Shown here: piece after piece, positions 1 to 42,378 of the stretch
How positions within the stretch are numbered: position 1 is the stretch's first letter
How the letters are laid out: each line of letters opens with the position of its first letter
Sequence record: PZ386962.1
DNA length: 42,716 nucleotides
Direction: 5' to 3' (one strand)
Source: a phage
Made by a program: the position numbers and the translations under genes
Notes under the pieces: model-generated
Told to the model about the DNA's origin: nothing
The model's database searches: none
The model's input: only the letters and a program-made list of their open reading frames with translations

Positions 1-1737
1 ATGGCAGGAATCGTTCGCGCTCACTACGAGAACAACTTCCCGCTGTTCCTGCATGACTACTTCGCATGGCTGGGCTTTGACCTCACTGAAATGCAGCTCG
101 ACATTGGCCGCTACATGGCCGACAGGACGCTCAAGAACAAGTGCGTCATGGCGCAGCGTGGTGAGGCTAAGTCCACCATCGGTATTGCCCGTGCTCTGTA
201 CGAATTTGTGCAGATGCCGAACGCCACTGTGCTGCTGGTATCCGGTTCGGATGACTATGCTGGCACGCTCTCGCACGCTATTGTGTCTGCCATCATGCAA
301 TGGGACAGACTCGAATGGCTGCGCCCGGAGACTCGCGCTGGCGCACGTACGTCATACACTGACGGCTTCGACGTGCATCACGCGTTCCGTATCCCTGACA
401 AACAGCCCTCTGTAAAAGCGGTCGGTATCTTCGGCCAGTTGCAGGGGAACCACGTATCGCTGTTGATTGCCGATGACGTGGAGACTACCAGTAACGGTAG
501 CTCTCCTGCCAACCGCGCCCGTATCAACACCCTGACCAAAGAGTTCGCGGCTATCGCCAACGATGGTGCAGAGATTCTGTACCTCGGCACCCCGCAGACT
601 CAGGACTCCATCTATAACACGCTCCCGCAGCGTGGCTTCGACGTTCGTATCTGGCCCGGTCGTTTCCCTACGCCGGAAGAAGAAGAACGGTACGGCGGCT
701 GTCTGGCCCCGTGGATTAAGCAGAAGATGGAAGGCCACCCGGAACTGCGTACTGGCTACGGTATCCTTGGGAACCGTGGTGCTCAGACTGACCCTCAGCG
801 TTATTCTGAGGAGAAGCAGCTCCAGAACGAACGAGATTATCAGCAGGCAGGCTTCCAGTTGCAGTTCATGCTGGATACGTCGCTGTCTGATGCGCTCAAA
901 CAAACGTTACATCTAAGAGACTTAATCTTCTTCCACGGCTCTACGCAGTCTGCGCCGGAGGTTCTGCATTGGTCGAACCACCCGCGCCATGCCGCCGAGC
1001 TGCCACTGGATTTCCCACTTGCTCGCGCTCAGCTATTCTTGGCTGCTGACTTCTCGGACACGTATGTACCATTCGAAAATACCTCGGCGTTTCTTGACCC
1101 TGCTGGTGGTGGGTCGGACGAATCAGTTATCATCGCCACAGCTTCTGTCGGCCCGTTTATCCACGTCATTGGTATGCACGTCTACCACGGCGGCCAGACG
1201 GAGGAGAACATCAAGGCAGCGGTAGAGTGGCTGTCTGAGGTCGGCGTTAAGCGGCTGGTCATTGAGGATAACATGGGCCACGGAACCGTGACCAACATGT
1301 ACCGAGGTGAGATTAAGCGGCAGAGCCTGACCATTGGCTGCGAAGGCGTGTACTCGTCCGGCCAGAAAGAGGTGCGTATCATCAACCGCCTCGGCCCAAT
1401 CATGCAGCGCCACCGTGTCGTTGTGCATTGGTGCGTTGTTGAAGAAGACCTGCGGCTGTGTCGGGGAATGAATAACGGTGGTCGCGAGTTCAGCCTGTTC
1501 TGGCAGCTCCAGAACCTGACCCAAGACCGTCAATCAATCCCTCACGATGACCGTATCGAAACCCTATCTGCTGCCGTGTACCTGCACGCTGAGGTGCTAC
1601 AGCAGGACGAACATGAAGAAGCTGCCAAGCGCGAGACTGCTGCTGCACGAGAGTTCCTTGCCAACCCCATGGGTTACGACGACTCGAAGTGGCGCAGCCA
1701 TAAGCCTGTGCGCGGCGTGCGACGGAGACTACGTTAA
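1..1737 (+). CDS. terminase large subunit (T7 gp19-like); N-terminus probably continues from window end
   Basis: 578-aa ORF placed directly after the terS-like ORF at the window end (circular reading); C-terminal RNase H-like nuclease-type segment (FLDPAGGGSDESVIIATASVG); size close to T7 gp19 when the 8 in-frame codons at 42693-42716 are added. Confidence 0.8.
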   Translation: MAGIVRAHYENNFPLFLHDYFAWLGFDLTEMQLDIGRYMADRTLKNKCVMAQRGEAKSTIGIARALYEFVQMPNATVLLVSGSDDYAGTLSHAIVSAIMQWDRLEWLRPETRAGARTSYTDGFDVHHAFRIPDKQPSVKAVGIFGQLQGNHVSLLIADDVETTSNGSSPANRARINTLTKEFAAIANDGAEILYLGTPQTQDSIYNTLPQRGFDVRIWPGRFPTPEEEERYGGCLAPWIKQKMEGHPELRTGYGILGNRGAQTDPQRYSEEKQLQNERDYQQAGFQLQFMLDTSLSDALKQTLHLRDLIFFHGSTQSAPEVLHWSNHPRHAAELPLDFPLARAQLFLAADFSDTYVPFENTSAFLDPAGGGSDESVIIATASVGPFIHVIGMHVYHGGQTEENIKAAVEWLSEVGVKRLVIEDNMGHGTVTNMYRGEIKRQSLTIGCEGVYSSGQKEVRIINRLGPIMQRHRVVVHWCVVEEDLRLCRGMNNGGREFSLFWQLQNLTQDRQSIPHDDRIETLSAAVYLHAEVLQQDEHEEAAKRETAAAREFLANPMGYDDSKWRSHKPVRGVRRRLR

Positions 1738-2405
1738 TGTCCTTGATTTCCATCACTGACCAACAGCGGTATGACATCGGCTACCGCGCCAACATTGCTG
1801 CGAACCTTACGCAGCGTTTCGTGAACAACACGACCACTATCACGGCAGCTCAGGCTGCTGACATCGACACGGCCATCCAGCAGCTCATGACAGCGTTGGA
1901 AGCGGCTGGGTATAGTTCCGTACCGGAAGGCTCAGTAATCGTCGCAGACGGCGCTACAGCGACTGTAGTGAACCAAGACGGCACTGTGTCCAAGTCGGGT
2001 ACGGTTGAGGTCGATGGCTCTACTTATCAGATTCGATTCCCGGTGACTGTCGGTATGAAGTCCAACGGTGACTCAATCTCTGTACAGAACGTGAACGGTG
2101 CCGCTGGCATTACGTCCACTTCCTTCGTGAACGCCAATGGTGTGCTGCTGGCAGCCCGGCTCCCGGCAACGGTGGCCTGCATCTCCAGCGGTAACGGTAT
2201 CCAAATCCGCAACTCTGCGGGTACGGCTATCGCCAACGCCACGTTCACTGTGTCCAACGGGGTAATCTCGTACGGCACCTTCCCTGCAACTATCGCTGCT
2301 GTGGCTAACGCCGCTGCACTACAGGTTCCGGTGACTGGCACTTACACCGACACTGCAACCTTCACTGTCGCTGGTGGCGTTATCACTGGCATCACCCTCT
2401 CTTAA
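1737..2405 (+). CDS. hypothetical protein, Thr/Ala/Gly/Val-rich, probably beta-rich (possible virion-associated protein)
   Basis: 222-aa ORF, ATG overlaps terL stop (TAATG), GGAGA RBS upstream; low-complexity T/A/G/V-rich composition; no recognisable motif. Confidence 0.5.
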   Translation: MSLISITDQQRYDIGYRANIAANLTQRFVNNTTTITAAQAADIDTAIQQLMTALEAAGYSSVPEGSVIVADGATATVVNQDGTVSKSGTVEVDGSTYQIRFPVTVGMKSNGDSISVQNVNGAAGITSTSFVNANGVLLAARLPATVACISSGNGIQIRNSAGTAIANATFTVSNGVISYGTFPATIAAVANAAALQVPVTGTYTDTATFTVAGGVITGITLS

Positions 2406-2416
2406 GGAGAATCTTT

Positions 2417-2611
2417 ATGGCACTTGTTGACTCTACCGCTGCTGAACGTGCGGAGTTCGTGGCAGCCTGTAATATGGCAGCCAAGTATCTGAACGTTTGG
2501 ACGGAAGACTACTTCTTCGACACCACCAACACCGAGCTGGTTGCTTACTATCAGACGTTCGTGACCCGTGTACAAACGGCGCTCACCAACCTCACTAACG
2601 GCGGCGCATAA
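2417..2611 (+). CDS. hypothetical protein
   Basis: 64-aa ORF with strong AAGGAGA RBS 7 nt upstream. Confidence 0.5.
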   Translation: MALVDSTAAERAEFVAACNMAAKYLNVWTEDYFFDTTNTELVAYYQTFVTRVQTALTNLTNGGA

Positions 2612-2621
2612 GGAGTAGAGT

Positions 2622-3110
2622 ATGAAACTGTCTCGGCTAATGGCCGGGGCAGTCCTCTCATTGTCACTGACATTGACGGGCTGCTCCGCAACTAGCGCAC
2701 TGTCTGCTGTAACTTCGGCTGTCTCTCCCAACAAGCCGGAACTCACGGCCCAAGTCGGTGCAGAGAACACGAAGCAAGGTATCGGTGTGACTGCGAAACA
2801 GTCCGACGAAACAAAGGTCGGTGACGTATCAGGTAACGCGAAAGTGGATACCGCTAAACAGGGTTCGAATGGCACTTCCGTCAAGGACGTTACAGGAGGC
2901 TCTGTAAACGCTTCTAAGCAGGGGTCGCAAATGACCCAAGGAAACGTACAGGCTCGCACAGTAATCGTCTCACAGAGCGACCCACGCAGTCTCCTGTGGG
3001 CTTTTGGCATGGGCCTTACATGTATCCTTGGTTTAGTCATGTGGTTTGTACCATCTCCGTGGAAAAGGAAAGTGAAAGATGACGGAAGCAAAGAAGGAGC
3101 CAACTCCTAA
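2622..3110 (+). CDS. unimolecular spanin-like outer-membrane lipoprotein with C-terminal transmembrane segment
   Basis: N-terminal signal peptide with lipobox LTGC (MKLSRLMAGAVLSLSLTLTGC), Ser/Thr/Lys-rich periplasmic region with repeated AKQG/SKQG units, C-terminal hydrophobic helix LLWAFGMGLTCILGLVMWFVP; AAGGAG RBS; lies immediately upstream of the holin candidate and endolysin. Confidence 0.55.
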   Translation: MKLSRLMAGAVLSLSLTLTGCSATSALSAVTSAVSPNKPELTAQVGAENTKQGIGVTAKQSDETKVGDVSGNAKVDTAKQGSNGTSVKDVTGGSVNASKQGSQMTQGNVQARTVIVSQSDPRSLLWAFGMGLTCILGLVMWFVPSPWKRKVKDDGSKEGANS

Positions 3111-3462
3111 CATCCACTCGCGTATGGGTGCAGTGGAGGCTCGTATGCAATCCGTAGAACTTCGACTCGACAAGCACGAGGTACAAATCGCCACTCTTGA
3201 AAAGGGCGATGCTGCAATGCTGGCCAAGCTCGCGGAGAACGATACCCGCTGGCAGACCGTTCAACAGCAGCTCCTTGTGGTTGAGCAAATTCAGGACATT
3301 CAGAAGACTATGAGCCATATCGGTAAGCTCTTTACGGCGGCGGCTCACGCTGTCAAATGGTGTCTCTTAACCGCATCCCTGTGTAGCGGTATCTACTTAG
3401 CGATTAAGGCTGGCGACCTCACGGCTCTCCAGTCCTTTATCACAACGATTATGGGGATGTAA
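3079..3462 (+). CDS. putative holin / lysis membrane protein (single C-terminal TMD)
   Basis: 127-aa ORF between spanin-like gene and endolysin; hydrophilic N-terminal region then one hydrophobic segment (LFTAAAHAVKWCLLTASLCSGIYLAI); start uncertain (internal Met at 3124 possible). Confidence 0.35.
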   Translation: MTEAKKEPTPNIHSRMGAVEARMQSVELRLDKHEVQIATLEKGDAAMLAKLAENDTRWQTVQQQLLVVEQIQDIQKTMSHIGKLFTAAAHAVKWCLLTASLCSGIYLAIKAGDLTALQSFITTIMGM

Positions 3463-3998
3463 TGACTAACTTTGAAATCTGTATGCGGTTCACCGGGCTG
3501 GCAGAAGGCGGTTACGCCAACCTGCCCGGCGACACCGGAGGGGAAACGAATCATGGAATTAGTGACGCTCGTGATGGAAAGCTGGATGGTAGAGCTTGCG
3601 GTGTCCCTACTGGGCTTGGCGGCACTATTTGTGTGCCTATCCGCGACCTCACCAAAGCGCAAGCCGAAGCAATCTATCGACGGGACTACTACAGCCCCAT
3701 CCGAGGTGACGAGCTTCACCCTGCGATTGCATGTGCCGTGTTCGACTACGGCGTTAACTCAGGTGTCTCCCGTGCGGCGAAAGCTCTACAGCGGGTATGC
3801 GGCGTTGCACAAGACGGGGTTATTGGCCCTGCTACCGTGGCAGCAGCCAAACGTCTGGAACCTCGCTCCGCAGCAGCAGCCATCTGTAACCTTCGTATTG
3901 CGTTCCTAAAGGCTTCTACAGCCCCAACAATCGTTCGGTATAGGGATGCCTTGGTAGCTCGTGCAAAACGCTGTAGCGCTTACTGTGCGACGCTGTAG
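3462..3998 (+). CDS. endolysin, GH108-like N-terminal domain with peptidoglycan-binding C-terminal domain
   Basis: EGGY motif near N-terminus (FTGLAEGGYANLPGD) as in GH108 family enzymes; DGxxGxxT-type motif (QDGVIGPATV) as in PG_binding_3 domains; no signal peptide, so holin-dependent. Confidence 0.7.
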   Translation: MTNFEICMRFTGLAEGGYANLPGDTGGETNHGISDARDGKLDGRACGVPTGLGGTICVPIRDLTKAQAEAIYRRDYYSPIRGDELHPAIACAVFDYGVNSGVSRAAKALQRVCGVAQDGVIGPATVAAAKRLEPRSAAAAICNLRIAFLKASTAPTIVRYRDALVARAKRCSAYCATL

Positions 3999-4200
3999 GG
4001 GTATCCGAAAGCTGAGGCAATGAACAGGCCGTGGGTGCAATACCCCGGCTTGAAAATTGACTATTTGTACGTGCCCCTCCCTCGACCCAAATGACCGCGC
4101 GTACCCCCATGACGTGTGCGCGGATTAGCCTCGCGACGTGCGCGATAATTGCTCGCGTGCGCTGCGCGGCGCGTCGAAAGGATTGCCTGCGTTCGGTATA

Positions 4201-4608
4201 GCTCGTGCGTGTCGCGTTTCATCGTCTGCCGTGTGGCGTGCTGTGCGCTGTCCTGCTGGCTGTGCTGTGTGCCTGCTGTGTGGGCTATCGGTGGCGGTGT
4301 GGTGCTGTCCTGTGGGGACGCTCTGCGCTGGCTGTGCGGTGCTGTGCGCTGCGCGTGGTCGTGCGGGTATCTGTCTCTTTTCGTCGTGGTGTGTGGTGCT
4401 GGTGTGTAGCGGTGTGCGGCGTGGTGCTGCCGTCCTGCTGTGTGGTGTGCTGGTCTACTGTCTGCGCCTGCCAGCTCTGCGCGTCGTACTCTGCTACCTG
4501 CTGTTACTGTCCTACTGCCTTCACTGTCTGCCGTCTGTCAGTCCTACGGTCTGCCATCCGTCATCCGTTCGGCGCTCGCTTGTTTCGGCTGCGCCGCGCT
4601 CGCTCTGC
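4201..4608. repeat. A-depleted GT/GC-rich compositional island with degenerate short repeats
   Basis: About 400 bp in which the + strand has only ~16 A by hand count; built from degenerate GCTGTG / CTGTGCGCTG / ACTGTCTGCC units; long ORFs in all three + frames are a composition artefact. Confidence 0.7.
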
Positions 4609-4617
4609 GTATCTAGC

Positions 4618-4635
4618 GATACTATATCACTATAG
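4618..4635 (+). promoter_or_regulatory. T7-like phage promoter core candidate (TCACTATAG) near presumed genome left end
   Basis: GATACTATATCACTATAG: last 9 nt identical to T7 class promoter -8 to +1 (TCACTATAG); reverse complement carries the ATGAAAGTGTCTATAG element also found at 25618. Confidence 0.3.
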
Positions 4636-4651
4636 ACACTTTCATAATTAT

Positions 4652-4672
4652 CTAATGATTACAGTAACTTAT
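4652..4672. repeat. 21-bp direct repeat copy 1 (CTAATGATTACAGTAACTTAT)
   Basis: Exact 21-mer repeated at 4731-4751 within an AT-rich stretch. Confidence 0.85.
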
Positions 4673-4730
4673 AACCTATCTGATAACGGTATTCTATCCA
4701 GTGTTAGGATTATCTAATCAAACTTTAATC

Positions 4731-4751
4731 CTAATGATTACAGTAACTTAT
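4731..4751. repeat. 21-bp direct repeat copy 2 (CTAATGATTACAGTAACTTAT)
   Basis: Exact copy of 4652-4672. Confidence 0.85.
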
Positions 4752-4772
4752 CACTTTTCTTGAAAATAATAC

Positions 4773-4801
4773 TTGCAAAGGTATTCGGTATTTGCTGTAA
4801 T
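4773..4801 (+). promoter_or_regulatory. sigma70-type early promoter candidate 1
   Basis: TTGCAA (-35) - 17 bp - TGcTGTAAT (extended -10). Confidence 0.5.
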
Positions 4802-4878
4802 TCATATCGCCGGACAACACAGCGTCAACGTGTTGGACGGTGTAGGACGGTAACACTGCTCTTTAACAATCTGGTGTG

Positions 4879-4907
4879 TTGACAAGGCAAGCTCACTATG
4901 CTGTAAT
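4879..4907 (+). promoter_or_regulatory. sigma70-type early promoter candidate 2
   Basis: TTGACA - 17 bp - TGcTGTAAT (extended -10 TGn). Confidence 0.6.
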
Positions 4908-5015
4908 GCTTCCACGTCAGCCAGCAAGCTAAACAGTCATTGATAAAGACGTTAAAACACACGTAGGCGAACTGGTACGGTTTAATTAACTCTGAAAGGG
5001 CGCTGATTAAAACGG

Positions 5016-5044
5016 TTGACAGGATGAAATGAGTATGCTGTAAT
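5016..5044 (+). promoter_or_regulatory. sigma70-type early promoter candidate 3
   Basis: TTGACA - 17 bp - TGcTGTAAT. Confidence 0.6.
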
Positions 5045-5095
5045 GCACACCAGATTGACAGGGCAGCAAGCCAGTCAGTCAGAAGTAAAAAGTAG

Positions 5096-5124
5096 TTGAC
5101 ACGCTGAATACGATGTGATGTAAT
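5096..5124 (+). promoter_or_regulatory. sigma70-type early promoter candidate 4
   Basis: TTGACA - 17 bp - TGaTGTAAT. Confidence 0.6.
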
Positions 5125-5556
5125 CAGCACCGAGTTGAAAGGTTGCAAAACAACCTGCTCTGAGTGAACGTAAACAGGCCACGTAGTGTCTCGGCCTCAT
5201 GGGTATCCGGCGCAGCTAGGAACTGGTGAGGGCACCGCCGAAAGGCAATAGGGGTAGCGCCCGGTGCGATGGGAACGGAGAAGCGCGATAGACGCAGCGC
5301 AGTATCAGCACAATCCCAAACGTCTTATAAGGCGCGGAGTGAAGCGGGTAGGTAGGCAAGCTGGTAACGGTGAGCCGGACTGCTGGAGGACTCCTGAGAG
5401 TGGATGCAGACAATATCCACGGCGCGAAATGGGCGGGGCGATTTTTCAGGGTAGTGAATCCGACAAGCCAATCAATGCCAACGAGTGCAGACTGTACGGC
5501 GCGTCACAATGGGTTCACTATCCACCTGAAAATAGCCAACAACTGGAGAAATTAAT

Positions 5557-5946
5557 ATGTACCGTATCTATGCAAGCGCATATCGTCAGGGCAACGCTGA
5601 GTCAGTCAATCTGGCGCTTCATTGCAAGGCACTGCGAACGGTGCAGGACATGTTCGGAGTGGTTCCGGTCACACTGACAGGCAAGTTCGACAATGCGTAT
5701 GAGTTAAGCATGGTCTTCCCTGTCGATGGAATCTACGAAATCCGACAGGCTGTTAAGCTGTTTTGTAAAGCCTTCGAACAGGACTGCATCATGGTAGTGA
5801 CCAAAGACGACGATGCAATCTTCATGGACTCACCGTATCCGGGTAAGCCTGCTGGCAAGCTGGTCAGCAAGACTAACGAGGAAATGGAAGCCGGGCAGCA
5901 TACCGCTTGGACTTACGATGGTGAGCAATTTTGGGTAGTGGAGTAA
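5557..5946 (+). CDS. hypothetical early protein
   Basis: 129-aa ORF, GGAGA RBS 6 nt upstream, first well-supported ORF downstream of the promoter cluster. Confidence 0.6.
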   Translation: MYRIYASAYRQGNAESVNLALHCKALRTVQDMFGVVPVTLTGKFDNAYELSMVFPVDGIYEIRQAVKLFCKAFEQDCIMVVTKDDDAIFMDSPYPGKPAGKLVSKTNEEMEAGQHTAWTYDGEQFWVVE

Positions 5947-10835: not shown

Positions 10836-11039
10836 ATGTTCCGAGTTATATTGTTGTTCCTGTTCCTCGTTATTATTTGGGGAGCTTTATGGATGGCGCT
10901 GGCAGTGTTCGCACTGATACCAGCCATCGGTGAGTCGGCTACTTCTTCGGTGGGTACGCTGCTCGGTATGCTGGTAGGCTGGGGCTTGATGCACGTAAGC
11001 CTGAGCGTAGGTCAGAGCCGGAGGTGGATTAGATGGTAA
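10836..11039 (+). CDS. small membrane protein (2 predicted TMDs)
   Basis: 67 aa, hydrophobic segments VILLFLFLVIIWGALWMALAVFALIPAI and GTLLGMLVGWGLMHV; GAGGA RBS. Confidence 0.55.
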   Translation: MFRVILLFLFLVIIWGALWMALAVFALIPAIGESATSSVGTLLGMLVGWGLMHVSLSVGQSRRWIRW

Positions 11040-12181: not shown

Positions 12182-12610
12182 GTGCTTGAGTGTATTGACC
12201 ACGGCCAGAAGGGTAATGCTAATGGCTACGGATATACCAGCCGCTATGTAGATGGCAAGCGGGTAGTGGTTGGGCTGCACCGCGCAGCTTACTGCGATGC
12301 GCATGGCCTGCCTTACTCTGCAATCAAGGGCAAGGTGGTCATGCACCGTTGTGATAACCCACGCTGTATCAACCCTGACCATCTGGTGTTGGGTACACAG
12401 GGAGACAACATGCAGGACATGATGGGCAAACGCCGACACCACAAGGGTGAGGCAACACCGCACGCCAAGCTGACGAGTGAGCAGGTCGTGCTTATCCGTA
12501 AGCTGTACGCTGAGGGCGGCGTAACCCAACGTGAACTTGCGTTGGAGTTCGGTGTATCCCAAACGAATATCAGTGCCATCGTAAGGGGAGAAACTTTCAG
12601 TGTTGGATAA
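12182..12610 (+). CDS. HNH homing endonuclease (HNH + C-terminal HTH)
   Basis: GTG start with AGGAG RBS; HRCDNPRCINPDHLVLGT HNH core; C-terminal helix-turn-helix-like tail; paralog of 18584-19009. Confidence 0.75.
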   Translation: MLECIDHGQKGNANGYGYTSRYVDGKRVVVGLHRAAYCDAHGLPYSAIKGKVVMHRCDNPRCINPDHLVLGTQGDNMQDMMGKRRHHKGEATPHAKLTSEQVVLIRKLYAEGGVTQRELALEFGVSQTNISAIVRGETFSVG

Positions 12611-17688: not shown

Positions 17689-18584
17689 CCGCATCTGTAT
17701 TGAACCGCATGAACTCCATCGTCGAACAGTATGTTGACGAGGAAGAACTTGACTTTAACGAAGCCACGTCTGGTGGTGGTAAGCTGCTGCCGGAAGGTAA
17801 GGCACTGGCACGTCTGGTTGGCTACATTGAAGTGGGGCCGAGCGTAACCAAGCAGGCACCGGACAAGCCGCCTGTCAATAAGTTCTTCCTCCAGTTCGCG
17901 CTGTGGGGCAAGGCCAAGAACGGCGAGACTTACCACGAAGTTGTCAATGGTAAGATGGTGCCGGGCAAGGTGCGCACGCAGTTCATCGCTGTGAAGAAAG
18001 ACCTCAACAGCAAGTCCGGCGCATACAAACTGTTTAAGCGTATGAACCCGGACAAGACTGCGAAGCACTTCGCGCAGCTTCTGAACCACACCTTCATCGT
18101 TCCGATTATCCACAACGAATCGGGCGAGGGCGAGAACAAGAAGGTGTACGCCAACATCGACCTTGAGAACATCATGCTCGCGGTTGACCCGGTGACTGAC
18201 CAGCCGTACCCGGTGCCGGAGGTTGAGGACGAGACGCTGTTCAAGCTGTTCCTGTGGAACCGTCCGACCAAGGAAGACTGGGAATCCCTGTACATCGAAG
18301 GTAAGAACGACGATGGCAAATCCAAGAACTGGATTCAGGATAAGCTGCTGGAATCTCCAGAGTTCCCCGGCTCTCCGCTTGACCTGCTGCTGAATGGTGC
18401 AGGTGCTGGCTCGGCAATCGCTGAGCTGCCGGAGCTGGGCGACGTAAGCCAGCCGGAGGAAGTGGCTGAGGTTAAGCAGGAAGTGCAGGAGCTGGCGACG
18501 GCTGGTGCGGCTGACAAGTCGGCAGCGTCTAAGCCTGAGCCGGACGTAACTGGTGACGCTGACTTCGGGCTGCCGAGTCTGTAA
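17685..18584 (+). CDS. hypothetical DNA-metabolism-associated protein with acidic C-terminus
   Basis: 299-aa ORF overlapping DNA polymerase stop; acidic C-terminal tail; function not assignable. Confidence 0.5.
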   Translation: MTASVLNRMNSIVEQYVDEEELDFNEATSGGGKLLPEGKALARLVGYIEVGPSVTKQAPDKPPVNKFFLQFALWGKAKNGETYHEVVNGKMVPGKVRTQFIAVKKDLNSKSGAYKLFKRMNPDKTAKHFAQLLNHTFIVPIIHNESGEGENKKVYANIDLENIMLAVDPVTDQPYPVPEVEDETLFKLFLWNRPTKEDWESLYIEGKNDDGKSKNWIQDKLLESPEFPGSPLDLLLNGAGAGSAIAELPELGDVSQPEEVAEVKQEVQELATAGAADKSAASKPEPDVTGDADFGLPSL

Positions 18585-19009
18585 TGGATTGCATAGACCA
18601 CGGTAAACGCGGCAACCACTTTGGCTACGCCACCACCACGAGGACGGTAGGTGGCAAGCGCCGGGCTGGTATCAAGCTGCATCGTCTGGTCTACTGTGAA
18701 GCGCATGGCCTGTCTCTCCTTGACATTGAGGGGCAGGTCGTGCGCCATACCTGCGACAACCCGCGCTGCATTAACCCCGACCACATGGTACTCGGTACTC
18801 ACCAAGACAATGTGGCCGACCGGGTAGCGCGTGGCCGTGGGGCAGTAGGCGTGAGGAATGGCAGAGCCGTACTGTGTCCCGCCGTAGTGGACGCAATCCG
18901 TAGCCGCTATGCGAATGGCGGCATCAAGCAATCTGAGCTGGCTGAGATTTATGGCGTGAGTCAAACGCAGGTCAGCCGCATAGTGAGGGGAGAGTCATGG
19001 GAAAGTTAG
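18584..19009 (+). CDS. HNH homing endonuclease (paralog of 12182-12610)
   Basis: HTCDNPRCINPDHMVLGT core; clearly co-linear with the other HNH protein over its full length. Confidence 0.75.
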   Translation: MDCIDHGKRGNHFGYATTTRTVGGKRRAGIKLHRLVYCEAHGLSLLDIEGQVVRHTCDNPRCINPDHMVLGTHQDNVADRVARGRGAVGVRNGRAVLCPAVVDAIRSRYANGGIKQSELAEIYGVSQTQVSRIVRGESWES

Positions 19010-22092: not shown

Positions 22093-22663
22093 GAAGGGTA
22101 AGCAGTTTATCTTAGACCCGTCCCGTAACTGGGGTACTGGTACGCTACTGAGTGACATCGCAGAGCAGGGTATCATCCTGACGTACGACGAGCCGTACGA
22201 TGTACCGAACGACAGCCGTGACTACTACTCCTGCGTAAAGGACGGCAAGACTCACCTGCTTGTGCTGGAGCCGTACGAGGTGCTGGAGGTGGAGAAGTCG
22301 TTCATCCCGATTGACCCGTATGACCCGGCCAGTGATGTTGAGGTCGCAGTGGTTAAGGCTGCTGGGCCGGGCGGTATGAAGTTCGACGGTGACAAGCCTC
22401 GCATGGCTCTGCTGTTTGACGGCTGCCCGAATGCGCTGGAGGCTGTGGCCAGTGTGCTAACCTTCGGTGCTCAGAAGTACGCAGCTCACTCGTGGCAGAC
22501 TGTGCCGGAAGGTGAGGAACGTTACAAGTCAGCACTGCTTCGGCACCTGACCGCAGTGGGTAAGGGTGAGGAGACTGACCCGGAATCCAATCTGCACCAT
22601 CTGGCGCACGCTGCTTGCAATGCGCTGTTCATTCTGGAACTTGCTTTAAGGAAAACGAAATGA
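22085..22663 (+). CDS. conserved hypothetical protein (KFDGDKPR motif)
   Basis: 193 aa from ATG with GGAGA RBS; function not assignable from sequence. Confidence 0.5.
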   Translation: MSKKGKQFILDPSRNWGTGTLLSDIAEQGIILTYDEPYDVPNDSRDYYSCVKDGKTHLLVLEPYEVLEVEKSFIPIDPYDPASDVEVAVVKAAGPGGMKFDGDKPRMALLFDGCPNALEAVASVLTFGAQKYAAHSWQTVPEGEERYKSALLRHLTAVGKGEETDPESNLHHLAHAACNALFILELALRKTK

Positions 22664-22839
22664 GTGCTTTACTTTATGTGATTGCTTTGTTCTGGTTCGT
22701 GTACTTTACACTGGCCACCCTCAGCGCGTGCAAGTCTTATAACTTGACGCACTACCCGACACGGGCTGGCTCTGCTGGTTTCGTTGTGTGGGTACTGTTG
22801 GCTGTACTGCCAACTTGGTTCATCTGCTATCTGGCGTAG
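22660..22839 (+). CDS. small membrane protein (2 predicted TMDs)
   Basis: 59 aa, hydrophobic segments LLYVIALFWFVYFTLATL and FVVWVLLAVLPTWFICYLA; AAGGA RBS. Confidence 0.5.
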   Translation: MSALLYVIALFWFVYFTLATLSACKSYNLTHYPTRAGSAGFVVWVLLAVLPTWFICYLA

Positions 22840-36899: not shown

Positions 36900-39800
36900 T
36901 TATCACACAAGAATCGCTCGACAAGTTCATGGCTCCCAAGCAGGGGGCCAACGCTCCCTCGCTGGTTATTCCAGCTCCCGTAAAGACTGCTGACCTCAGC
37001 ACTCCACTGCAAGATGCCACTCGTCAGGGTGCCGTCGAGCAGTTCGACAAGATGCAGGAACTGGAAGCAACTCCGATGGCCACGGCGTTGAGTGCTTCTG
37101 TGAAGAACTGGGACACCACCCAGCTCTTTGATGCCGCGTTCAACAAGCCCACCTTCCAAGCTGACCCGGACTTCAAGCCCAACGAGGCATTGCAGAACGT
37201 ACAGTTCCCGGTGGGTGCAGATGACCGGACGTTCCTGTTCAAATCCAAATCCATGGACGAGTTCAACTGGCGTACCCAGCAGCTCCAAGAGATGCGAGAA
37301 CGTACCCAGTTGGCTCACACTGCGCCAGTGATGAACGCAGTGCTGCAATTCGCTGACCCGCTGTACCTTGCTACTGACCTGCTCTCGATGGGAGCAGGCA
37401 CTGCCCTGAAACTTGGTCGCCTTGGAACCGCTGCCGTAGGCGCGGCGTCCACTGCTACGCTGATGAACACCATCGGTAGCGAGGCTCGCCCAGTATCTCA
37501 GAACGAGATTATCTTTGCGGCTGCCCTGCACGGGGCGGCCACCACTGCATTCTATCGCCCCGCCGCTGCGCCAGCCCGTCGCCTTGATGAGCTGTCGCCA
37601 GAGGAATTTGCGGCTGAGATGCAGCGCCGTAACGGTATTGACCCGAACAACCCGCCGCAGTTTGACCCGAACAACGCCATGTCTCCGCTGGCAATGTCCC
37701 TCGGTGTCGGCCCTCGCGGTGCCACTGTAGTTGACGAAGTACCGGAATCCATTCGGGCTGCGGCTCAGCGTGGACTCGACCTCGCACGCCGTGGTGAGCA
37801 GACCAACCCTAAGCGTCCATTCCTTGAGTGGTCACTGTTCAAGTCGTTCAGTCAGCATTCTGAGGAATCCAGTGCGTTGGCCGGGCGACTGCTGGACGAC
37901 CCACTGAACCCGAACATGACCTCTGCTGCTGCAATCCAGCGCGAGACTCAGGCTCGCTTCGGTGTGCTGCTGAACCAGTATGAAGACACCCTGCGCCATG
38001 CCCTGACCACTGATGGCTGGAGTAACATCCGGCGCTTCCGTGACCCGGTTGGCTATCGCCGGGCGCAGCAGGAGTTCGAAGCTGCTGTTCGTCTTGAGCT
38101 GGACAAGCGCATGATTGACAACAACTTCCGTGGCGCTAACCCGAGTGTGGCCGCTGCCGCCGACCGACTGGGCGAATACTCTCGCGCCGTGGGCCGGGAG
38201 CTGGAACGCAAGGGGATGGTTGAGCCGGGCTTCGTGGAGAAGAACCCGTACTACTACCCTCGCCGGATGAACGTGACCAAGGTTGAGCAGGCTGAGCAGT
38301 TGCTCGGCAAGAAGCCATTCATGAAGCAGATGACGACTGCTGTGCAGCGCGGTATCGGTACTGACCGTCCGACTGCCAACGTCATTGCCCATGCTATGGT
38401 GGAGCGTGCCCGCCGCAAAGGTTACGGTATCGACAACTCCGGTACGATTATCAACAAGGAGGGCCGCGATGAGCTGCTCGAAATCATTGAGAACTCGAAA
38501 GGACTCGACGAGGCTGCCAAGGCCCGTGCTTCCGCACTCCTTCGTGAATCTGGCTCGGACGCTGGCCGACCGTCGATGCTTAAGAGCCGTATCAACATCG
38601 ACATGATGCACCAGCTCGGCCCTAACTTGCAGGTGCGTGACCTGTTCGATGACAGCATCACCAGTATGATGGACAGCTACAACCGCCGCATTACTGGGCG
38701 ACTGGCTCTGCATGAGGCTGGACTGGGTACTGACGCCGAACGCGCTGCTGCTCGTGAGGCTCTGGCCAAATCCATCAAGGATGGTACGGCTCGTCGTCAG
38801 GCGCTGGGGCAGTATGACAACATCATGGCTTATTACCAAGGTGCGCCAGTTGGTGAGGAAATGCCGCAGTTCATGCGTCAGCTCTCTGCACTGACTCAGG
38901 CTACTGGTCTGGCTGCATCTGGTCTGTGGCAGTTGGTGGAATACGGCACGATGATGCAACGTTTCGGGGCAGTCAATACGTTTCGCGCCATGATGCGTAC
39001 AATTCCCGAAGCACGCGCACTATTTAAGCAAATGAGGGTGTCTACTAAGGAAGGTCGTCAGTTGGCACTTGATGCCGAGGAAGCTCTGACTGCGGCGGTT
39101 GCGAGTGATATTCGTATGCGCCCAATCATGCAGCACTATGAAGATATGTTCTCTGCGGATAAGTCACCGTGGGTTATGCGTCTTGAGCACGCCCGTGATG
39201 CTACCATGTTCATCAACATGCAGAAATACATCCACTTCCACCAGACCCGTACCAACGCTGCGCTCGTGATGCAGACTCTGCGTAAGGCTGCCGAAGGTGA
39301 CGCCAAGGCTATTGCCGCGATGAAAACCTATGGTGCCAATGAGCAGCTTCTGAACGACATTCGCAAGCAGGTCGGGCAGCATGGCACCAAGCCAGACGCT
39401 TGGGACGAGGGCGTGTTCAACCGCTCCCGTATTGTCATGATGAATGCCATGGATGACGCCATTGTTCGCGCCCGTGTGGGTGAGCTGCCTGCGTTTGCAG
39501 AGTTCAGCACGCTCGGTAAGTTCCTGTTTACGTTCCGTCGATTCGTAGCGGCTACGCACAACAAGACACTGGTGGGTACGTGGAATCGTGAAGGTGCTCG
39601 CGGAATGGCTACGCTCATGGCGTATCAGTATCCGCTGGCGATGATGGCCACCGCAGCCAACAACGTGATTTCTGGCAAGGCTTTCTCCGACCCGGAAACC
39701 ATGGCACCAAATAAGCTGGCTGGGCAGGCACTGAACTATCTTGGTGCTATCGGCTTTGCCTCCGAGTTCACTGGTGTCCTGACCGGGCAGCAGCGTAGCT

Positions 39801-40006
39801 TCGGTGCGCCGGGCCTGTTGTTCCTCGACCGTGCCTACGGCGTGGCAGGTGCAGCTACCAATGCTGCTGGCGGTGTGTTGACTGGGGATGCTGACCAAGC
39901 CATCTCCGGTGCTCGCAAGGCGGCGGGTAACGTCATCCAAGCAATCCCACTCATCTCCATTGTGCCGGGCGTCCGAGCACTCAACGAAGCAGTTAAGGGT
40001 GAATAA
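36896..40006 (+). CDS. internal virion (core / ejectosome) protein C (gp16-like)
   Basis: 1036 aa, last large gene before tail fiber, ATG overlaps upstream stop. Confidence 0.65.
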   Translation: MIITQESLDKFMAPKQGANAPSLVIPAPVKTADLSTPLQDATRQGAVEQFDKMQELEATPMATALSASVKNWDTTQLFDAAFNKPTFQADPDFKPNEALQNVQFPVGADDRTFLFKSKSMDEFNWRTQQLQEMRERTQLAHTAPVMNAVLQFADPLYLATDLLSMGAGTALKLGRLGTAAVGAASTATLMNTIGSEARPVSQNEIIFAAALHGAATTAFYRPAAAPARRLDELSPEEFAAEMQRRNGIDPNNPPQFDPNNAMSPLAMSLGVGPRGATVVDEVPESIRAAAQRGLDLARRGEQTNPKRPFLEWSLFKSFSQHSEESSALAGRLLDDPLNPNMTSAAAIQRETQARFGVLLNQYEDTLRHALTTDGWSNIRRFRDPVGYRRAQQEFEAAVRLELDKRMIDNNFRGANPSVAAAADRLGEYSRAVGRELERKGMVEPGFVEKNPYYYPRRMNVTKVEQAEQLLGKKPFMKQMTTAVQRGIGTDRPTANVIAHAMVERARRKGYGIDNSGTIINKEGRDELLEIIENSKGLDEAAKARASALLRESGSDAGRPSMLKSRINIDMMHQLGPNLQVRDLFDDSITSMMDSYNRRITGRLALHEAGLGTDAERAAAREALAKSIKDGTARRQALGQYDNIMAYYQGAPVGEEMPQFMRQLSALTQATGLAASGLWQLVEYGTMMQRFGAVNTFRAMMRTIPEARALFKQMRVSTKEGRQLALDAEEALTAAVASDIRMRPIMQHYEDMFSADKSPWVMRLEHARDATMFINMQKYIHFHQTRTNAALVMQTLRKAAEGDAKAIAAMKTYGANEQLLNDIRKQVGQHGTKPDAWDEGVFNRSRIVMMNAMDDAIVRARVGELPAFAEFSTLGKFLFTFRRFVAATHNKTLVGTWNREGARGMATLMAYQYPLAMMATAANNVISGKAFSDPETMAPNKLAGQALNYLGAIGFASEFTGVLTGQQRSFGAPGLLFLDRAYGVAGAATNAAGGVLTGDADQAISGARKAAGNVIQAIPLISIVPGVRALNEAVKGE

Positions 40007-42378
40007 TGGCGAACAGCTATAATACTTACGTGGCGAACGGTTCACAGACCGCATTCCTCGTCACGTTCGAGCAGCGCGTGTTCACTGAGATTCAGGTGTA
40101 CCTCAACTCCGAACTCCAGACGAGCGGATACACCTACAACTCTGTGACCAAACAGATTGTCTTTGACACCGCCCCGCCAATCGGGGTGATTGTCCGACTC
40201 CAACGCTACACCTCCGATATTCTGCTTAACAAGTTCGGTCAGGACGCTGCCTTCACGGGCAGCAACCTCGACGAGAACTTCGAGCAGATTCTGTTTAAGG
40301 CTGAGGAAACTCAGGAGGCATGGCTCGCGCCGCTTGACCGCGCAGTCCGTGTCCCGAACTCCGAAGTCTCCATCAACGCATTACCGAACGTCGCTGGCCG
40401 CCGTAACAAGGCATTGGGCTTTGACAACGCTGGCCAGCCGTTCATGATTCCTCTGGTTGATATTCCTGACTCAGCTCTGGCCATTGCGCTGGCGATGAAT
40501 GACGGCGGTAAGTGGATTGGCACCCTTGGCGGTGGTACGTTCCTCGACCGTCAGGACACTGTGTGTCTGTCAGAGTTCACCAACAACACTGGCTATGCGT
40601 CCATCGCTGCCGCTGTGCAGGCATGTTTCGACTATGCCAAGGCAAACGGTAAGGTTGTGGATGCACGCGGCTGGGAAGGCACTGTGGACTCCACGGTGAC
40701 AATGGATGGTATTGAGGTCGTCGGCGGTACGTGGCACGGTAAGGCAGATATTCGACTGATTGACTCAACGTTCCGCAACTTCAAGGCATCCACTGTGCGT
40801 GTGGCATACTGGGGTGGCAAGGTTCGCATTGCTGACTATGAGTTCACCAGTGCGCCGAGCAACTCCAAAGTTACGTCAATCCTGTTCCAAGGCAACATCG
40901 CCGGGGGCAGCTACGTAATCGAGAACGGTATCCACCGTAACGGCAAGTTCGGTATTCTGCAACAGGGTACTGGTGAGGCTATCACCAACGGCATTATCCG
41001 CAACGTCGCTATGATGGACATGATGGGTGATGGCATTGAGATGAACGTAATCAACAAGCACTATGACGGTGGCCTGCTGATTGAGAACATCTACCTTGAG
41101 AATATCGACGGCACCAACGCACCTATTCCACTGTCCAACTGGGGCATCGGTATCGGTATTGCAGGTCAAGGCCCGTTTGGTTGGGATGCTGCTGAGACTC
41201 AGTACGCGAAGAACGTAACCGTGCGTAACGTCCATGCTCCGCGCGGTGTACGTCAGGTTGTCCACTTCGAAGTTACCCGCGACAGCGTGTGCGAGAACGT
41301 GGTCTGTAACCCTGACCTGTCCGTGTCCACTGGTACTGGCCTGTCTGCTGCTGGCGTAATCACGTACGGCTGCAAACGCATGACCATTGATGGCGTGGTT
41401 GGTGAGCCTATCAACACAGGTGCAACCTCCCCTAACGATATTCGTCTCGTTATGCTGGAGTGGGGTGCTAACCAAGCAGGTGCTGGCGGTACGCCGGGTG
41501 CTGCGTGTCCATCTTTTGACATGACCGTGCGCAACGTGCAGACCCGCACCGGGCGCTTCTATGCAGGTGTCGGCTCCGACGACGATAACACCAACACGTA
41601 CCACCTTGAAAACATTCACTGTTACAAGATGACGCTGTTCGGTGTGGCTACTCTGCTGAACATGACCAACGTTACTGGTGTCGTATTCGACGCAGTTGGT
41701 GATGACTCCAGCGGCGGTACTTCATCCAACGGTGTGTACCCGCGTAAGAAGACGTGCCTGAACATGGTGAACGTGAACTTCTACGGGCCGGGTATGACCG
41801 AGGGTGCGCTGTACAGTAAGGCTCGCTACTCTGACATTAGCACGCTGAACTCCAACGTGCGTGCCATCCCTTACTCTAACATCCAAGGTAACGTTGGCGC
41901 TATCCTGTCTCCAGTGAACCGCATCCTGACGCTGCCAAACAACTTGGCAACGCTGACAGGTGCTGAGTTCCCGACTGGTAAAGAGTTCCCGGAAGGTACT
42001 GTCCTGCTGAAAACTGATGGTTCTGGTGGTAACTTCATCGTCACCCAGTTTGGTGCCTACATCCCTAATGATGGCAACAACTTTAAGGTGCGTGCTGCTG
42101 CTGCTGGCCAGACGTATCTGGAGCAGAACCTGACTCCGGCTGGTACTCAGGCATCCACCTCGTGGCTGTACCATAAACCAATCTCTGCTGGCACCCGGTT
42201 GAACATCCCCGGCGCTGGGCCGAGTGGCGGTACACTGACCGTGACGGTGGTGCGTGCTCCTTATCAGGTGGACAACAACATCGGGAACCCGGTACGCATC
42301 GACATCACCCCGGCCATTGTGACGGCTATCCCTGCTGGGACTCAGCTCGCCGCAACTTATCCGGTGGCTTACATCTAA
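40006..42378 (+). CDS. tail fiber / tailspike protein with probable beta-helix enzymatic domain
   Basis: N-terminal segment resembles the T7 gp17-type tail attachment domain in pattern and placement (MANSYNTYVANGSQTAFLVTFEQ...); central region has repeated NVxVRNV-like strands typical of right-handed parallel beta-helix depolymerases. Confidence 0.7.
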   Translation: MANSYNTYVANGSQTAFLVTFEQRVFTEIQVYLNSELQTSGYTYNSVTKQIVFDTAPPIGVIVRLQRYTSDILLNKFGQDAAFTGSNLDENFEQILFKAEETQEAWLAPLDRAVRVPNSEVSINALPNVAGRRNKALGFDNAGQPFMIPLVDIPDSALAIALAMNDGGKWIGTLGGGTFLDRQDTVCLSEFTNNTGYASIAAAVQACFDYAKANGKVVDARGWEGTVDSTVTMDGIEVVGGTWHGKADIRLIDSTFRNFKASTVRVAYWGGKVRIADYEFTSAPSNSKVTSILFQGNIAGGSYVIENGIHRNGKFGILQQGTGEAITNGIIRNVAMMDMMGDGIEMNVINKHYDGGLLIENIYLENIDGTNAPIPLSNWGIGIGIAGQGPFGWDAAETQYAKNVTVRNVHAPRGVRQVVHFEVTRDSVCENVVCNPDLSVSTGTGLSAAGVITYGCKRMTIDGVVGEPINTGATSPNDIRLVMLEWGANQAGAGGTPGAACPSFDMTVRNVQTRTGRFYAGVGSDDDNTNTYHLENIHCYKMTLFGVATLLNMTNVTGVVFDAVGDDSSGGTSSNGVYPRKKTCLNMVNVNFYGPGMTEGALYSKARYSDISTLNSNVRAIPYSNIQGNVGAILSPVNRILTLPNNLATLTGAEFPTGKEFPEGTVLLKTDGSGGNFIVTQFGAYIPNDGNNFKVRAAAAGQTYLEQNLTPAGTQASTSWLYHKPISAGTRLNIPGAGPSGGTLTVTVVRAPYQVDNNIGNPVRIDITPAIVTAIPAGTQLAATYPVAYI

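Follow-up and report, generated by a model that had tools for sequence, protein, structure and literature searches.

The DNA analysed here (the window; 42,716 nt, sequence record PZ386962.1) comes from a J8-65-like coliphage (Bonnellvirus) with a T7-type genome, and positions 2622-3998 hold its late lysis cassette, located at the right end of the genome. An ORF check resolved the cassette into three overlapping genes on the plus strand (Table 1), in the order of a unimolecular spanin (u-spanin), a 127-aa protein and an endolysin, and the corresponding order, with a TMD protein in the middle slot, is found in KP34-like phages and in the Phimunavirus Momine. There is a 32-nt overlap between the u-spanin gene and the middle gene, and the stop codon of the latter shares 1 nt with the endolysin start codon (TAATG). 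A scan of positions 1600-5600 for promoters and terminators, using a tool that does not cover phage-RNAP promoters, returned nothing above shuffled expectation. The assignments of signal and TMD segments given below rest on pattern and hydropathy (Kyte-Doolittle, KD) scripts together with conservation.

Table 1. Features of the lysis cassette, with window positions and the basis of each assignment
Feature	Position	Strand	Basis
u-spanin gene (162 aa), T1 gp11 family	2622..3110	+	ORF; phrog_1804; BLASTP to T1 gp11; J8-65 identity
u-spanin, predicted lipoprotein signal peptide, with lipobox LTGC at its end	2622..2684	+	pattern scan; homologue conservation
u-spanin, two tandem linker units (aa 64-82, 85-102)	2811..2927	+	self-alignment against shuffles
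u-spanin, predicted C-terminal inner-membrane helix (aa 122-145)	2985..3056	+	hydropathy; homologue conservation; AlphaFold2
predicted holin, 127 aa, phrog_35530	3079..3462	+	family; AlphaFold2; distribution; context; hhalign to XhlA
predicted transmembrane core W94-I109 of the 127-aa protein	3358..3405	+	hydropathy; pattern kept in distant relatives
endolysin, 178 aa, GH108, no SAR segment	3462..3998	+	Pfam; phrog_315
doubtful out-of-frame ORF (118 aa) inside the endolysin gene	3553..3909	+	one strong TMD

For the first gene, the 162-aa product is assigned by homology to the T1 gp11 family of u-spanins. It is 35% identical to T1 gp11 (BLASTP, E 4e-16), with which it shares the motif P..TAQVGAENTKQ, matches phrog_1804 ('Rz-like spanin') across its full length at 1.4e-36, and is 94% identical to the u-spanin of J8-65. 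The latter has been catalogued as a T1-family u-spanin in the spanin census of Kongari et al. 2018 (PMC6139136), in which the family also includes proteins of LIMEzero, KP34 and LIMElight, and T1 gene 11 complements a lambda Rz/Rz1 defect (PMC6139136). That a u-spanin takes the place of Rz/Rz1 has been reported before for J8-65, a near-identical phage, and hence is not new, so that the practical use of this assignment is limited to correcting annotation, the gene being named variously 'hypothetical', 'Rz-like spanin' or 'Rz1A' in public records.

At the N-terminus of the 162-aa protein, K2 and R5 are followed by a hydrophobic core and then by the lipobox L18-T-G-C21 (codons at 2673-2684) with Ser22 next to it; L18, G20 and C21 are invariant across 16 homologues including T1 gp11. 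Acylation is predicted at Cys21, and the presence of Ser22 after it, with no Asp at +2, would direct the protein to the outer membrane. The C-terminal helix is charge-free (KD 2.0-2.1) and precedes a KRKVK tail that is predicted to be cytoplasmic; the position of this TMD is kept in all homologues. In an AlphaFold2 model built from a 43-sequence alignment (pLDDT 51), only two terminal helices were obtained, one of them at residues 121-142, and the periplasmic part appeared without secondary structure; the census gives a beta-strand pattern for the periplasmic domain of the J8-65 u-spanin (PMC6139136).

A six-frame signal-plus-lipobox scan over both strands of the 42.7-kb window found no other credible lipoprotein ORF, and the window has no Rz/Rz1 pair. 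Within the other plus-strand frames of 2622-3110 there is no embedded ORF of at least 30 aa, and the single embedded ORF of 3079-3462 (3197-3313, with a TTG start) lacks a lipobox. The original prediction, that a single u-spanin-like gene with an LTGC lipobox and a C-terminal helix takes the place of an Rz/Rz1 pair, is borne out by the homology to T1 gp11, the near identity with J8-65, the pattern and hydropathy scans, and the absence of an Rz1-like lipoprotein ORF elsewhere in the window. As in the T1 gp11 family, the lipobox is N-terminal and the TMD C-terminal, the P..TAQVGAENTKQ.G motif is present, periplasmic cysteines are absent, and the gene is located in the lysis cassette, a linkage with fixed position that was observed in four phage groups. 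The u-spanin gene is, however, first in the cassette here and last in T1. In addition, T1-family members typically accompany a pinholin/SAR endolysin pair, whereas the partner endolysin here is without a SAR segment; J8-65 and LIMEzero were already flagged in the census as exceptions to this pairing (PMC6139136).

The 178-aa product of the third gene is identified from its domain content as a GH108 muramidase, in agreement with the original prediction of a GH108-like endolysin. Residues 13-101 match Pfam Glyco_hydro_108 (PF05838) at 2.4e-22 (79.7 bits; cut-off 21.2), and include the EGGY motif ('LAEGGY' at residues 13-18); residues 105-149 match PG_binding_3 (PF09374) at 22.1 bits, slightly below the cut-off of 24.6, and the protein is assigned to phrog_315 (endolysin) at 7.9e-41. 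Hydropathy revealed no N-terminal hydrophobic segment, the GH108 domain itself beginning at residue 13, and the enzyme has no SAR segment.

The 127-aa protein belongs to phrog_35530 (5e-59), a family annotated as 'hypothetical' everywhere, and it matched no curated holin family at threshold in Pfam, PHROGs or NCBIfam. It corresponds to the C-terminally anchored holin candidate described in the original prediction: its one charge-free segment, the 16 residues W94-I109 between K93 and K110, lies near the C-terminus and is weakly hydrophobic (KD 1.74). Unlike many holins, the protein has no charged tail at its C-terminus. An AlphaFold2 model (pLDDT 81) consists of a long helix at residues 12-110 and a short helix at 114-125, giving a layout in which a long N-terminal helix or coiled coil leads into the hydrophobic core, after which come an invariant G-D and a second, short helix at the C-terminus. 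Distant relatives keep the pattern K-x16-[KR]-x-G-D and have cores of higher hydrophobicity (KD up to 2.7). The shortness and weak hydrophobicity of the core in the protein from this phage count against reading the cassette as one with a tail-anchored holin. A PDB sequence search with the family profile returned only non-significant coiled coils.

The gene for the 127-aa protein is present in 22 of 22 related Bonnellvirus/LIMEzero records. Searching 1.84 billion proteins with a profile recovered relatives over the full length, with E-values from 3e-12 to 3e-6, all of which match phrog_35530, and a locus search starting from the distant subgroup added one further locus. Wherever the flanking DNA was long enough (loci L007, L008-10, L011, L013/L024, L025, L026 and L028), the gene that follows encodes an endolysin without an N-terminal hydrophobic segment. 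These endolysins belong to two unrelated families, being GH24 in six lineages and GH108 in the phage studied here, in LIMEzero and in L028, while L011 carries the complete trio of u-spanin, 127-aa-like protein and endolysin with a GH24 enzyme. The linkage between the 127-aa gene and the endolysin gene outlasts both the exchange of GH108 for GH24 and the loss of the u-spanin, across lineages that are only 20-31% identical. No two-TMD gene was found in this cassette or beside the distant gene pairs, most of which lie on short contigs. The 127-aa gene has the layout of a holin gene, encoding a small protein with at least one predicted TMD and adjoining an endolysin gene in every lineage examined.

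Among known systems, the N-terminus of the 127-aa protein resembles that of XhlA of Bacillus (PBSX) and gp24.1 of SPP1, which are C-terminally anchored holin components. Like the 127-aa protein, they have an N-terminal coiled coil, in which the pattern R..ER.D.H..QI...L.K..EN..W appears to be shared, and a single TMD at the C-terminus, and in each case the endolysin gene follows directly. The comparison of the 127-aa family with the XhlA family (PF10779) by hhalign gave a score of 41.8 (Prob 92.6%) over the N-terminal 47 columns, that is, the coiled-coil region only, as against 22 for reversed controls and at most 17.4 for column shuffles, and both subfamilies match one and the same region. 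The Pfam gathering threshold for PF10779 (34.7 bits) was not reached by the 127-aa protein (14.2 bits) or by three relatives (13.8-18.8 bits), XhlA scores overall running from 13.5 to 18.8 bits. Coiled-coil similarity can mislead, and the match to XhlA is confined to such a region. There are also clear differences, as XhlA is about 85 aa long whereas the 127-aa protein has about 35 extra helical residues separating the common motif from the TMD, XhlA and gp24.1 come from Bacillus whereas the 127-aa protein is from the phage of a Gram-negative host, and the two-TMD gene of XhlB/gp26 type that adjoins XhlA and gp24.1 systems is absent beside the 127-aa gene. XhlA and gp24.1 alone are harmless and become lethal only with their two-TMD partner (XhlB/gp26); in SPP1, the partner gp26 is transcribed early and gp24.1 late.

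In phage N4, gp63 has been experimentally shown to be a C-terminally anchored pinholin with a GH108 endolysin encoded alongside (bioRxiv 10.1101/2025.11.12.688109). By itself gp63 produces only pinholes and leaves soluble endolysin unreleased, while the two-TMD protein gp62 releases it (bioRxiv 10.1101/2025.11.12.688109). The likeness to the 127-aa protein extends to size (about 110-127 aa), a cytoplasmic N-terminal helical domain, a C-terminal anchor after K-W, and the GH108 enzyme in the cassette. However, the N4 enzyme is a SAR endolysin whereas the GH108 protein here has no SAR segment, and N4 adds the two-TMD gp62 and an adjoining Rz/Rz1-type spanin pair, neither of which occurs in this cassette. 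Homology between the 127-aa protein and gp63 was considered and rejected, as the hhalign probability was 63.7% with the single N4 sequence but only 8.8% once a profile of 8 gp63 members was used; a comparison of XhlA with the gp63 family likewise gave a weak result (37.7%). The functional precedents XhlA/gp24.1 and N4 gp63 act with a two-TMD partner and none is encoded in this cassette, which is a further point against the tail-anchored holin reading. Nevertheless, these precedents mean that the C-terminal TMD, which the original prediction called atypical for a holin, now has parallels.

The KP34-like and Phimunavirus cassettes have the same gene order after terL and a homologous u-spanin (51-56% identity), but differ in their middle and last genes, a pinholin/SAR endolysin pair made up of an 85-aa TMD protein and a GH24 SAR endolysin; in Momine, for instance, the 85-aa TMD protein is paired with the SAR endolysin. 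In the cassette studied here, the last two genes are swapped as a pair for the 127-aa tail-anchored protein and the non-SAR GH108 enzyme.

The 127-aa protein is the best holin candidate of this phage and probably its holin or holin core, and it seems fairly likely that the cassette as a whole comprises a tail-anchored holin, a GH108 muramidase and a u-spanin. One cassette protein would then act on each envelope layer. The 127-aa protein, tail-anchored in the inner membrane with its helical or coiled-coil N-terminal domain in the cytoplasm, would accumulate there and then trigger, forming lesions that may let the cytoplasmic non-SAR endolysin reach the wall, whose peptidoglycan the GH108 muramidase would break down. 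The u-spanin is predicted to be anchored in the outer membrane through a lipid on Cys21 and in the inner membrane through its C-terminal helix, spanning the periplasm through the wall meshwork; with the wall gone, it may pull the two membranes into contact and cause them to fuse, the action proposed for T1 gp11.

A two-component holin, in which the 127-aa protein would be one subunit or a timer and the partner would be encoded at 10836-11039 (67 aa) or 22660-22839 (59 aa), is an unlikely alternative. It would parallel the dependence of XhlA and gp24.1 on a two-TMD partner, the early expression of that partner and late expression of gp24.1 in SPP1, and the need of N4 for gp62 to free a soluble endolysin where gp63 makes pinholes only; the window does have two small two-TMD ORFs in its early/middle region, and the family of 10836-11039 occurs in J8-65 and Lidtsur, plus 18 records by tblastn. 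Yet both ORFs lie far from the cassette, neither matches any holin family in NCBIfam, Pfam or PHROGs, LIMEzero is without any small two-TMD protein, and the distant loci, mostly short contigs, show no two-TMD gene beside the pair. Searches by tblastn found no 22660-22839 in J8-65, smaasur, LF82-23, Lidtsur or LIMEzero, such absences of small hydrophobic ORFs being soft evidence, as the Lidtsur homologue of 10836-11039 was missed by tblastn. The original prediction had suggested that the true holin might be encoded at 22660-22839. This is not favoured, and the ORF is a weaker candidate than the 127-aa gene, because its distribution is patchy (only 14 of the related phage records by tblastn, versus 22 of 22 for the 127-aa gene), whereas relatives of the 127-aa gene always precede an endolysin without an N-terminal membrane segment. 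The more conserved 10836-11039 could be a two-TMD partner.

It is improbable that the 127-aa protein has no part in lysis, being for example a membrane-tethered scaffold, exclusion or assembly factor that travels with the right-end block while the endolysin exits by an unrecognised route. The failure to match a curated holin family, the weak hydrophobic core and the missing charged tail would fit such a role, but they are set against the persistence of the endolysin linkage through enzyme exchange and u-spanin loss in highly diverged lineages, the overlapping stop and start codons, and the position of the gene in the slot of the TMD protein of Phimunavirus and KP34-like cassettes; moreover, lacking a SAR or signal segment, the endolysin depends on some hole-former, and no other TMD protein is encoded in the late region. 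Within the endolysin gene of S. aureus phage 187, a holin-like gene reportedly lies in another reading frame, and the 118-aa ORF at 3553-3909 would be a comparable candidate, although a very improbable one. Its product has a TMD (KD 2.5) followed by basic KRKPK, its ATG stands about 11 nt after GGAGG, all 11 Bonnellvirus genomes compared keep the frame open and share this ATG, and resampling the synonymous codons of the same protein gave a shorter ORF in 98-99% of cases. Nonetheless, six stops break the frame in LIMEzero, which retains the rest of the cassette, divergence at four-fold sites is no lower in the overlap (0.13) than in the non-overlapped 3' end (0.10), and the +1 product is, relative to frame 0, conserved no better than the +1 frames of neighbouring genes. 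Several other genes of the genome also have long +1 open frames, and the distant GH24-linked loci are unable to carry this ORF. By the frame-openness, codon-resampling and four-fold-site tests, the open frame at 3553-3909 is probably due to chance. For the first gene, it is hardly credible that the 162-aa lipoprotein is a surface or exclusion lipoprotein and that the outer membrane is disrupted otherwise. In its favour there is only that the periplasmic domain of the long subfamily (162-188 aa) resisted modelling; but the homology to T1 gp11, which complements lambda Rz/Rz1, is full-length, the conserved C-terminal TMD would be needless in an exclusion lipoprotein, the place in the lysis cassette is fixed in four phage groups, and the genome offers no alternative spanin.

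With the 127-aa protein as the putative holin, phrog_35530 is now nominated as the holin family of Bonnellviruses and LIMEzero, which have no annotated holin. For phages of Gram-negative bacteria, holin activity of a cytoplasmic coiled coil with a C-terminal anchor was demonstrated only recently, with N4 gp63, and the 127-aa family would bear on whether tail-anchored proteins form large holes unaided. It is plausible, though a tentative proposal, that phrog_35530 represents a class of holins not recognised before, tail-anchored and XhlA-like, in phages of T7 type that infect Gram-negative bacteria. Unlike XhlA or N4 gp63, these would release endolysins lacking any SAR or signal segment without a two-TMD partner, and they would link the XhlA components of Bacillus evolutionarily to Gram-negative phage lysis.

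The linker of the u-spanin contains xKQ[GS] motifs at residues 49, 57, 77 and 97, and the (T/S)AKQG repeats noticed originally proved to be real, forming two aligned units with 10 identities over 19 positions and the consensus [ST]xVKDV[ST]Gxx(x)V[DN]x[AS]KQGS. The self-alignment score was 41 against a shuffle mean of 26 and was reached by 7 of 500 shuffles. T1 gp11 is about 30 residues shorter than the 162-aa protein because one linker unit of about 20 aa is duplicated in the latter. The number of unit copies varies between lineages, with one in the 129-aa proteins of Phimunavirus, two in the phage studied here and three in the 188-aa protein of LIMEzero, a series that provides a natural set for testing periplasmic length against u-spanin function.

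The 42,716-nt sequence is a complete, circularly permuted genome of a T7-type phage that runs from the terL ATG at its start to terS at its end, and its region 1700-4100 shares 98% identity with Escherichia phages altidsur and aldrigsur and 81-92% with other members of Bonnellvirus, including J8-65. The three ORFs originally predicted to form a lysis cassette are all present (see the table), and the observation of the cassette was confirmed. The u-spanin and p127 genes overlap by 32 nt, and the p127 and endolysin genes share the A of TAATG, an arrangement that suggests coupled translation. In public annotations the three genes appear as 'hypothetical', 'Rz-like spanin', 'putative Rz1-like/Rz1A' and 'endolysin'. 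As the alignment with the J8-65 direct terminal repeat starts at approximately 4083, the cassette forms the final block of genes on the right-hand side of the linear genome, at its end.

Coordinates of the cassette genes, other holin candidates and p127 genes annotated from an internal Met in related phages
Feature	Record	Coordinates	Strand	Length	Remark
u-spanin gene	window	2622..3110	+	162 aa	
p127 gene (predicted holin)	window	3079..3462	+	127 aa	
endolysin gene	window	3462..3998	+	178 aa	
embedded ORF (MELVTLVMESWMVELAVSLLGLAALFVCLSATSPKRKPKQ...)	window	3553-3909	+	118 aa	one strong TMD; +1 frame inside endolysin gene
two-TMD protein	window	10836-11039	+	67 aa	early/middle region
two-hydrophobic-segment ORF	window	22660-22839	+	59 aa	early/middle region, just upstream of RNA polymerase gene
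p127 gene, internal Met	LIMEzero (L015)	41312-41707			
p127 gene, internal Met	J8-65 (L016)	39797-40114			
p127 gene, internal Met	RZ4 (L020)	1527-1865			

For the first gene product, the predicted lipobox and C-terminal hydrophobic helix were both found by sequence pattern and hydropathy: the N-terminus (MKLSRLMAGAVLSLSLTLTGC, followed by Ser at +2) combines two basic residues, a hydrophobic core and the lipobox LTGC, and a charge-free helix at residues 122-145 (Kyte-Doolittle ~2.1) precedes KRKVK. The protein matches PHROG 1804 ('Rz-like spanin') over its full length (1.4e-36) and T1 gp11 at 35% identity (E 4e-16). Aligning 16 sequences, T1 gp11 among them, revealed no variation in the lipobox L-x-G-C or in the motif P..TAQVGAENTKQG.G, together with conservation of the C-terminal TMD. 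No second credible lipoprotein was detected in the genome by a six-frame scan for signal-plus-lipobox ORFs, and thus there is no hidden Rz1. On these grounds the proposal of a u-spanin in place of an Rz/Rz1 pair is correct. It is not new, being published for J8-65, whose protein is 94% identical: Kongari et al. 2018 (PMC6139136) listed J8-65 (163 aa) and LIMEzero (188 aa) in the T1 gp11 u-spanin family as 'unusually long' and as the sole members without a pinholin and SAR endolysin pairing, and reported that T1 gene 11 complements the lambda Rz/Rz1 defect. Some homologs, such as that of Pectobacterium phage PPWS1, already bear the name 'RzlA (u-spanin)'. The remaining interest lies in the u-spanin's modular linker and in p127, an unannotated XhlA-like, tail-anchored holin candidate.

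Repeated motifs had been noted in the linker, and these exist: xKQ[GS] occurs four times, and the units at residues 64-82 (TKVGDVSGNAKVDTAKQGS) and 85-102 (TSVKDVTGGS-VNASKQGS) are identical at 10 positions when aligned, a score reached by just 7 of 500 shuffles. More telling than this self-alignment is the comparison of homologs, in which the ~20-aa unit is present once in Phimunavirus (128-129 aa), twice in Bonnellvirus (162 aa) and three times in LIMEzero-type proteins (184-190 aa). As copy number tracks protein length, the 'unusually long' u-spanins result from tandem duplication of a ~20-aa module. The linker region has no usable structure in the AlphaFold2 model (pLDDT 51).

The assignment of the endolysin as GH108-like holds, with a Pfam Glyco_hydro_108 score of 79.7 bits (cut-off 21.2); a PG_binding_3-like C-terminal domain scored 22.1 bits, below its cut-off of 24.6. 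The catalytic domain begins at residue 13 and a hydrophobic N-terminus is absent, and thus the enzyme, having neither a SAR nor a signal segment, depends on a hole-forming protein for access to the wall. As predicted, p127 has a C-terminal hydrophobic segment, W94-I109 (KD 1.74), which is its sole charge-free hydrophobic stretch and is flanked by K93 and K110, followed by an invariant G-D. An AlphaFold2 model of this PHROG 35530 member (a family annotated as function unknown), built from 22 sequences (pLDDT 81), consists of a single helix at 12-110 and a short helix at 114-125. Several public records place the gene start at an internal Met, so that the product measures 105-112 aa; conservation of residues 1-22 throughout the family and a Shine-Dalgarno-like AAGGAAAG at the upstream start point to the longer form as the likely real protein.

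A tblastn search of 50,697 phage records matched p127 in every one of the 22 records of Bonnellvirus and LIMEzero and in no other. Searching 1.84 billion representatives with a profile retrieved seven distant full-length relatives (126-149 aa, E 3e-12 to 3e-6), all matching PHROG 35530, which retain the K-x16-[KR]-x-G-D architecture and have much stronger hydrophobic cores. In T7-like contigs (L007, L008-L010, L013/L024, L025, L026) the p127-like gene follows terL and precedes a GH24 lysozyme whose N-terminus lacks a hydrophobic segment; the stop codon of the former and the start codon of the latter usually overlap. In L011 a T1-family u-spanin (134 aa, lipobox LSAC) comes first, then the p127-like gene and a lysozyme of this same type, L028 has the u-spanin, p127-like and GH108 order of the window, and L012 and L027 end before a complete downstream gene. 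The cassette order parallels that of u-spanin, pinholin and SAR endolysin in KP34-like phages, and in Phimunavirus Momine an 85-aa TMD protein and then a GH24 endolysin whose N-terminus is SAR-like come after a homologous u-spanin, whereas the window has p127 and a non-SAR GH108. These contexts identify the p127 family as occupant of the holin slot, and the family co-varies with endolysins lacking an N-terminal membrane segment from two unrelated families (GH108 and GH24). Position and co-variation of this kind are what classically marks a holin in genomes.

Several family members gave sub-threshold matches to Pfam XhlA (E 0.0019-0.067), PHROG 1193 and PHROG 1296. When the p127 profile was compared by hhalign with an XhlA alignment built from SPP1 gp24.1 homologs, the N-terminal 47 columns matched (Prob 92.6%, score 41.8; reversed profiles ~22, 40 column shuffles at most 17.4) with the common pattern R..ER.D.H..QI...L.K..EN..W, and p127 subfamilies taken singly matched the same region (scores 29.7 and 33.0). 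As it scores below the curated threshold, p127 is termed XhlA-like rather than filed in Pfam XhlA.

Both XhlA and gp24.1 are holin components with a C-terminal anchor; they work jointly with a two-TMD holin (XhlB or gp26) and do no harm by themselves. In phage N4 the pinholin gp63 (110 aa) has a C-terminal anchor and a cytoplasmic helical N-domain, its cassette also encodes a GH108 SAR endolysin, and the two-TMD gp62 is a lysis regulator (bioRxiv 10.1101/2025.11.12.688109); homology of p127 to gp63 was not significant between families (hhalign Prob 8.8%), making gp63 an analog rather than a demonstrable homolog. Given the XhlA/XhlB and gp63/gp62 precedents, p127 might act with a two-TMD partner encoded far from the cassette, possibly the 67-aa protein, which was found in 18 records by tblastn and by direct inspection in J8-65 (gp11) and Lidtsur (gp19). 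However, LIMEzero has no small two-TMD protein, and neither the 67-aa product, which has no match to any family, nor the 59-aa product matches any holin family, so that such a partner seems unlikely. The original suggestion that the true holin might be the 59-aa product is not favored, this ORF being less conserved than the 67-aa one, patchy (14 related records) and undetected by tblastn in J8-65, smaasur, LF82-23, Lidtsur and LIMEzero. Its hydrophobic N-terminus, with an N-region lacking basic residues, ends in a lipobox-like LSAC, and the second, C-terminal hydrophobic helix follows after just ~16 residues.

A holin role for the ORF embedded in the endolysin gene is very improbable: it encodes a strong TMD, is open from the identical ATG in 11 of 11 Bonnellvirus genomes and exceeds 98-99% of synonymous-codon resamplings in length, but its frame is disrupted in LIMEzero, and the overlap exhibits no specific suppression of synonymous change, as measured by four-fold-site divergence.

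With p127 as the holin candidate, the original interpretation is supported, and homology and gene context suggest the following course of lysis. The three genes would be expressed jointly late in infection, and p127 would insert via its C-terminal anchor, accumulate, probably with its coiled coils oligomerizing in the cytoplasm, and trigger to permeabilize the inner membrane. The GH108 muramidase would then escape and degrade the murein, and the u-spanin, lipid-anchored in the outer membrane by Cys21 and embedded in the inner membrane through residues 122-145, would be freed from the meshwork to fuse both membranes.

Downstream of the cassette, the non-coding region ~4083-4720 is strongly A-depleted at 4200-4500 (AT skew -0.86, GC 0.65), which creates long spurious ORFs rich in Cys/Val/Arg (4138-4717), and GC drops to 0.30 at 4600-4800. 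The interval from terL to the lysis genes is always occupied by two small genes, at 1737-2405 (222 aa) and 2417-2611 (64 aa) in the window and also in L006, L012, L013, L024 and L028; the first (97-223 aa) retains the motif 'TFTVxxGxITxIxLS' at its C-terminus even where the T7-like contigs are distant, and has no more than a weak match to a PHROG labeled 'virion structural protein'. The replication module carries two inserted, paralogous plus-strand ORFs of ~141 aa (12182-12610 and 18584-19009), both starting with (V/M)xxCIDHG..GN and including HRCDNPRCINPDH or HTCDNPRCINPDH; they resemble homing endonucleases of the HNH type.
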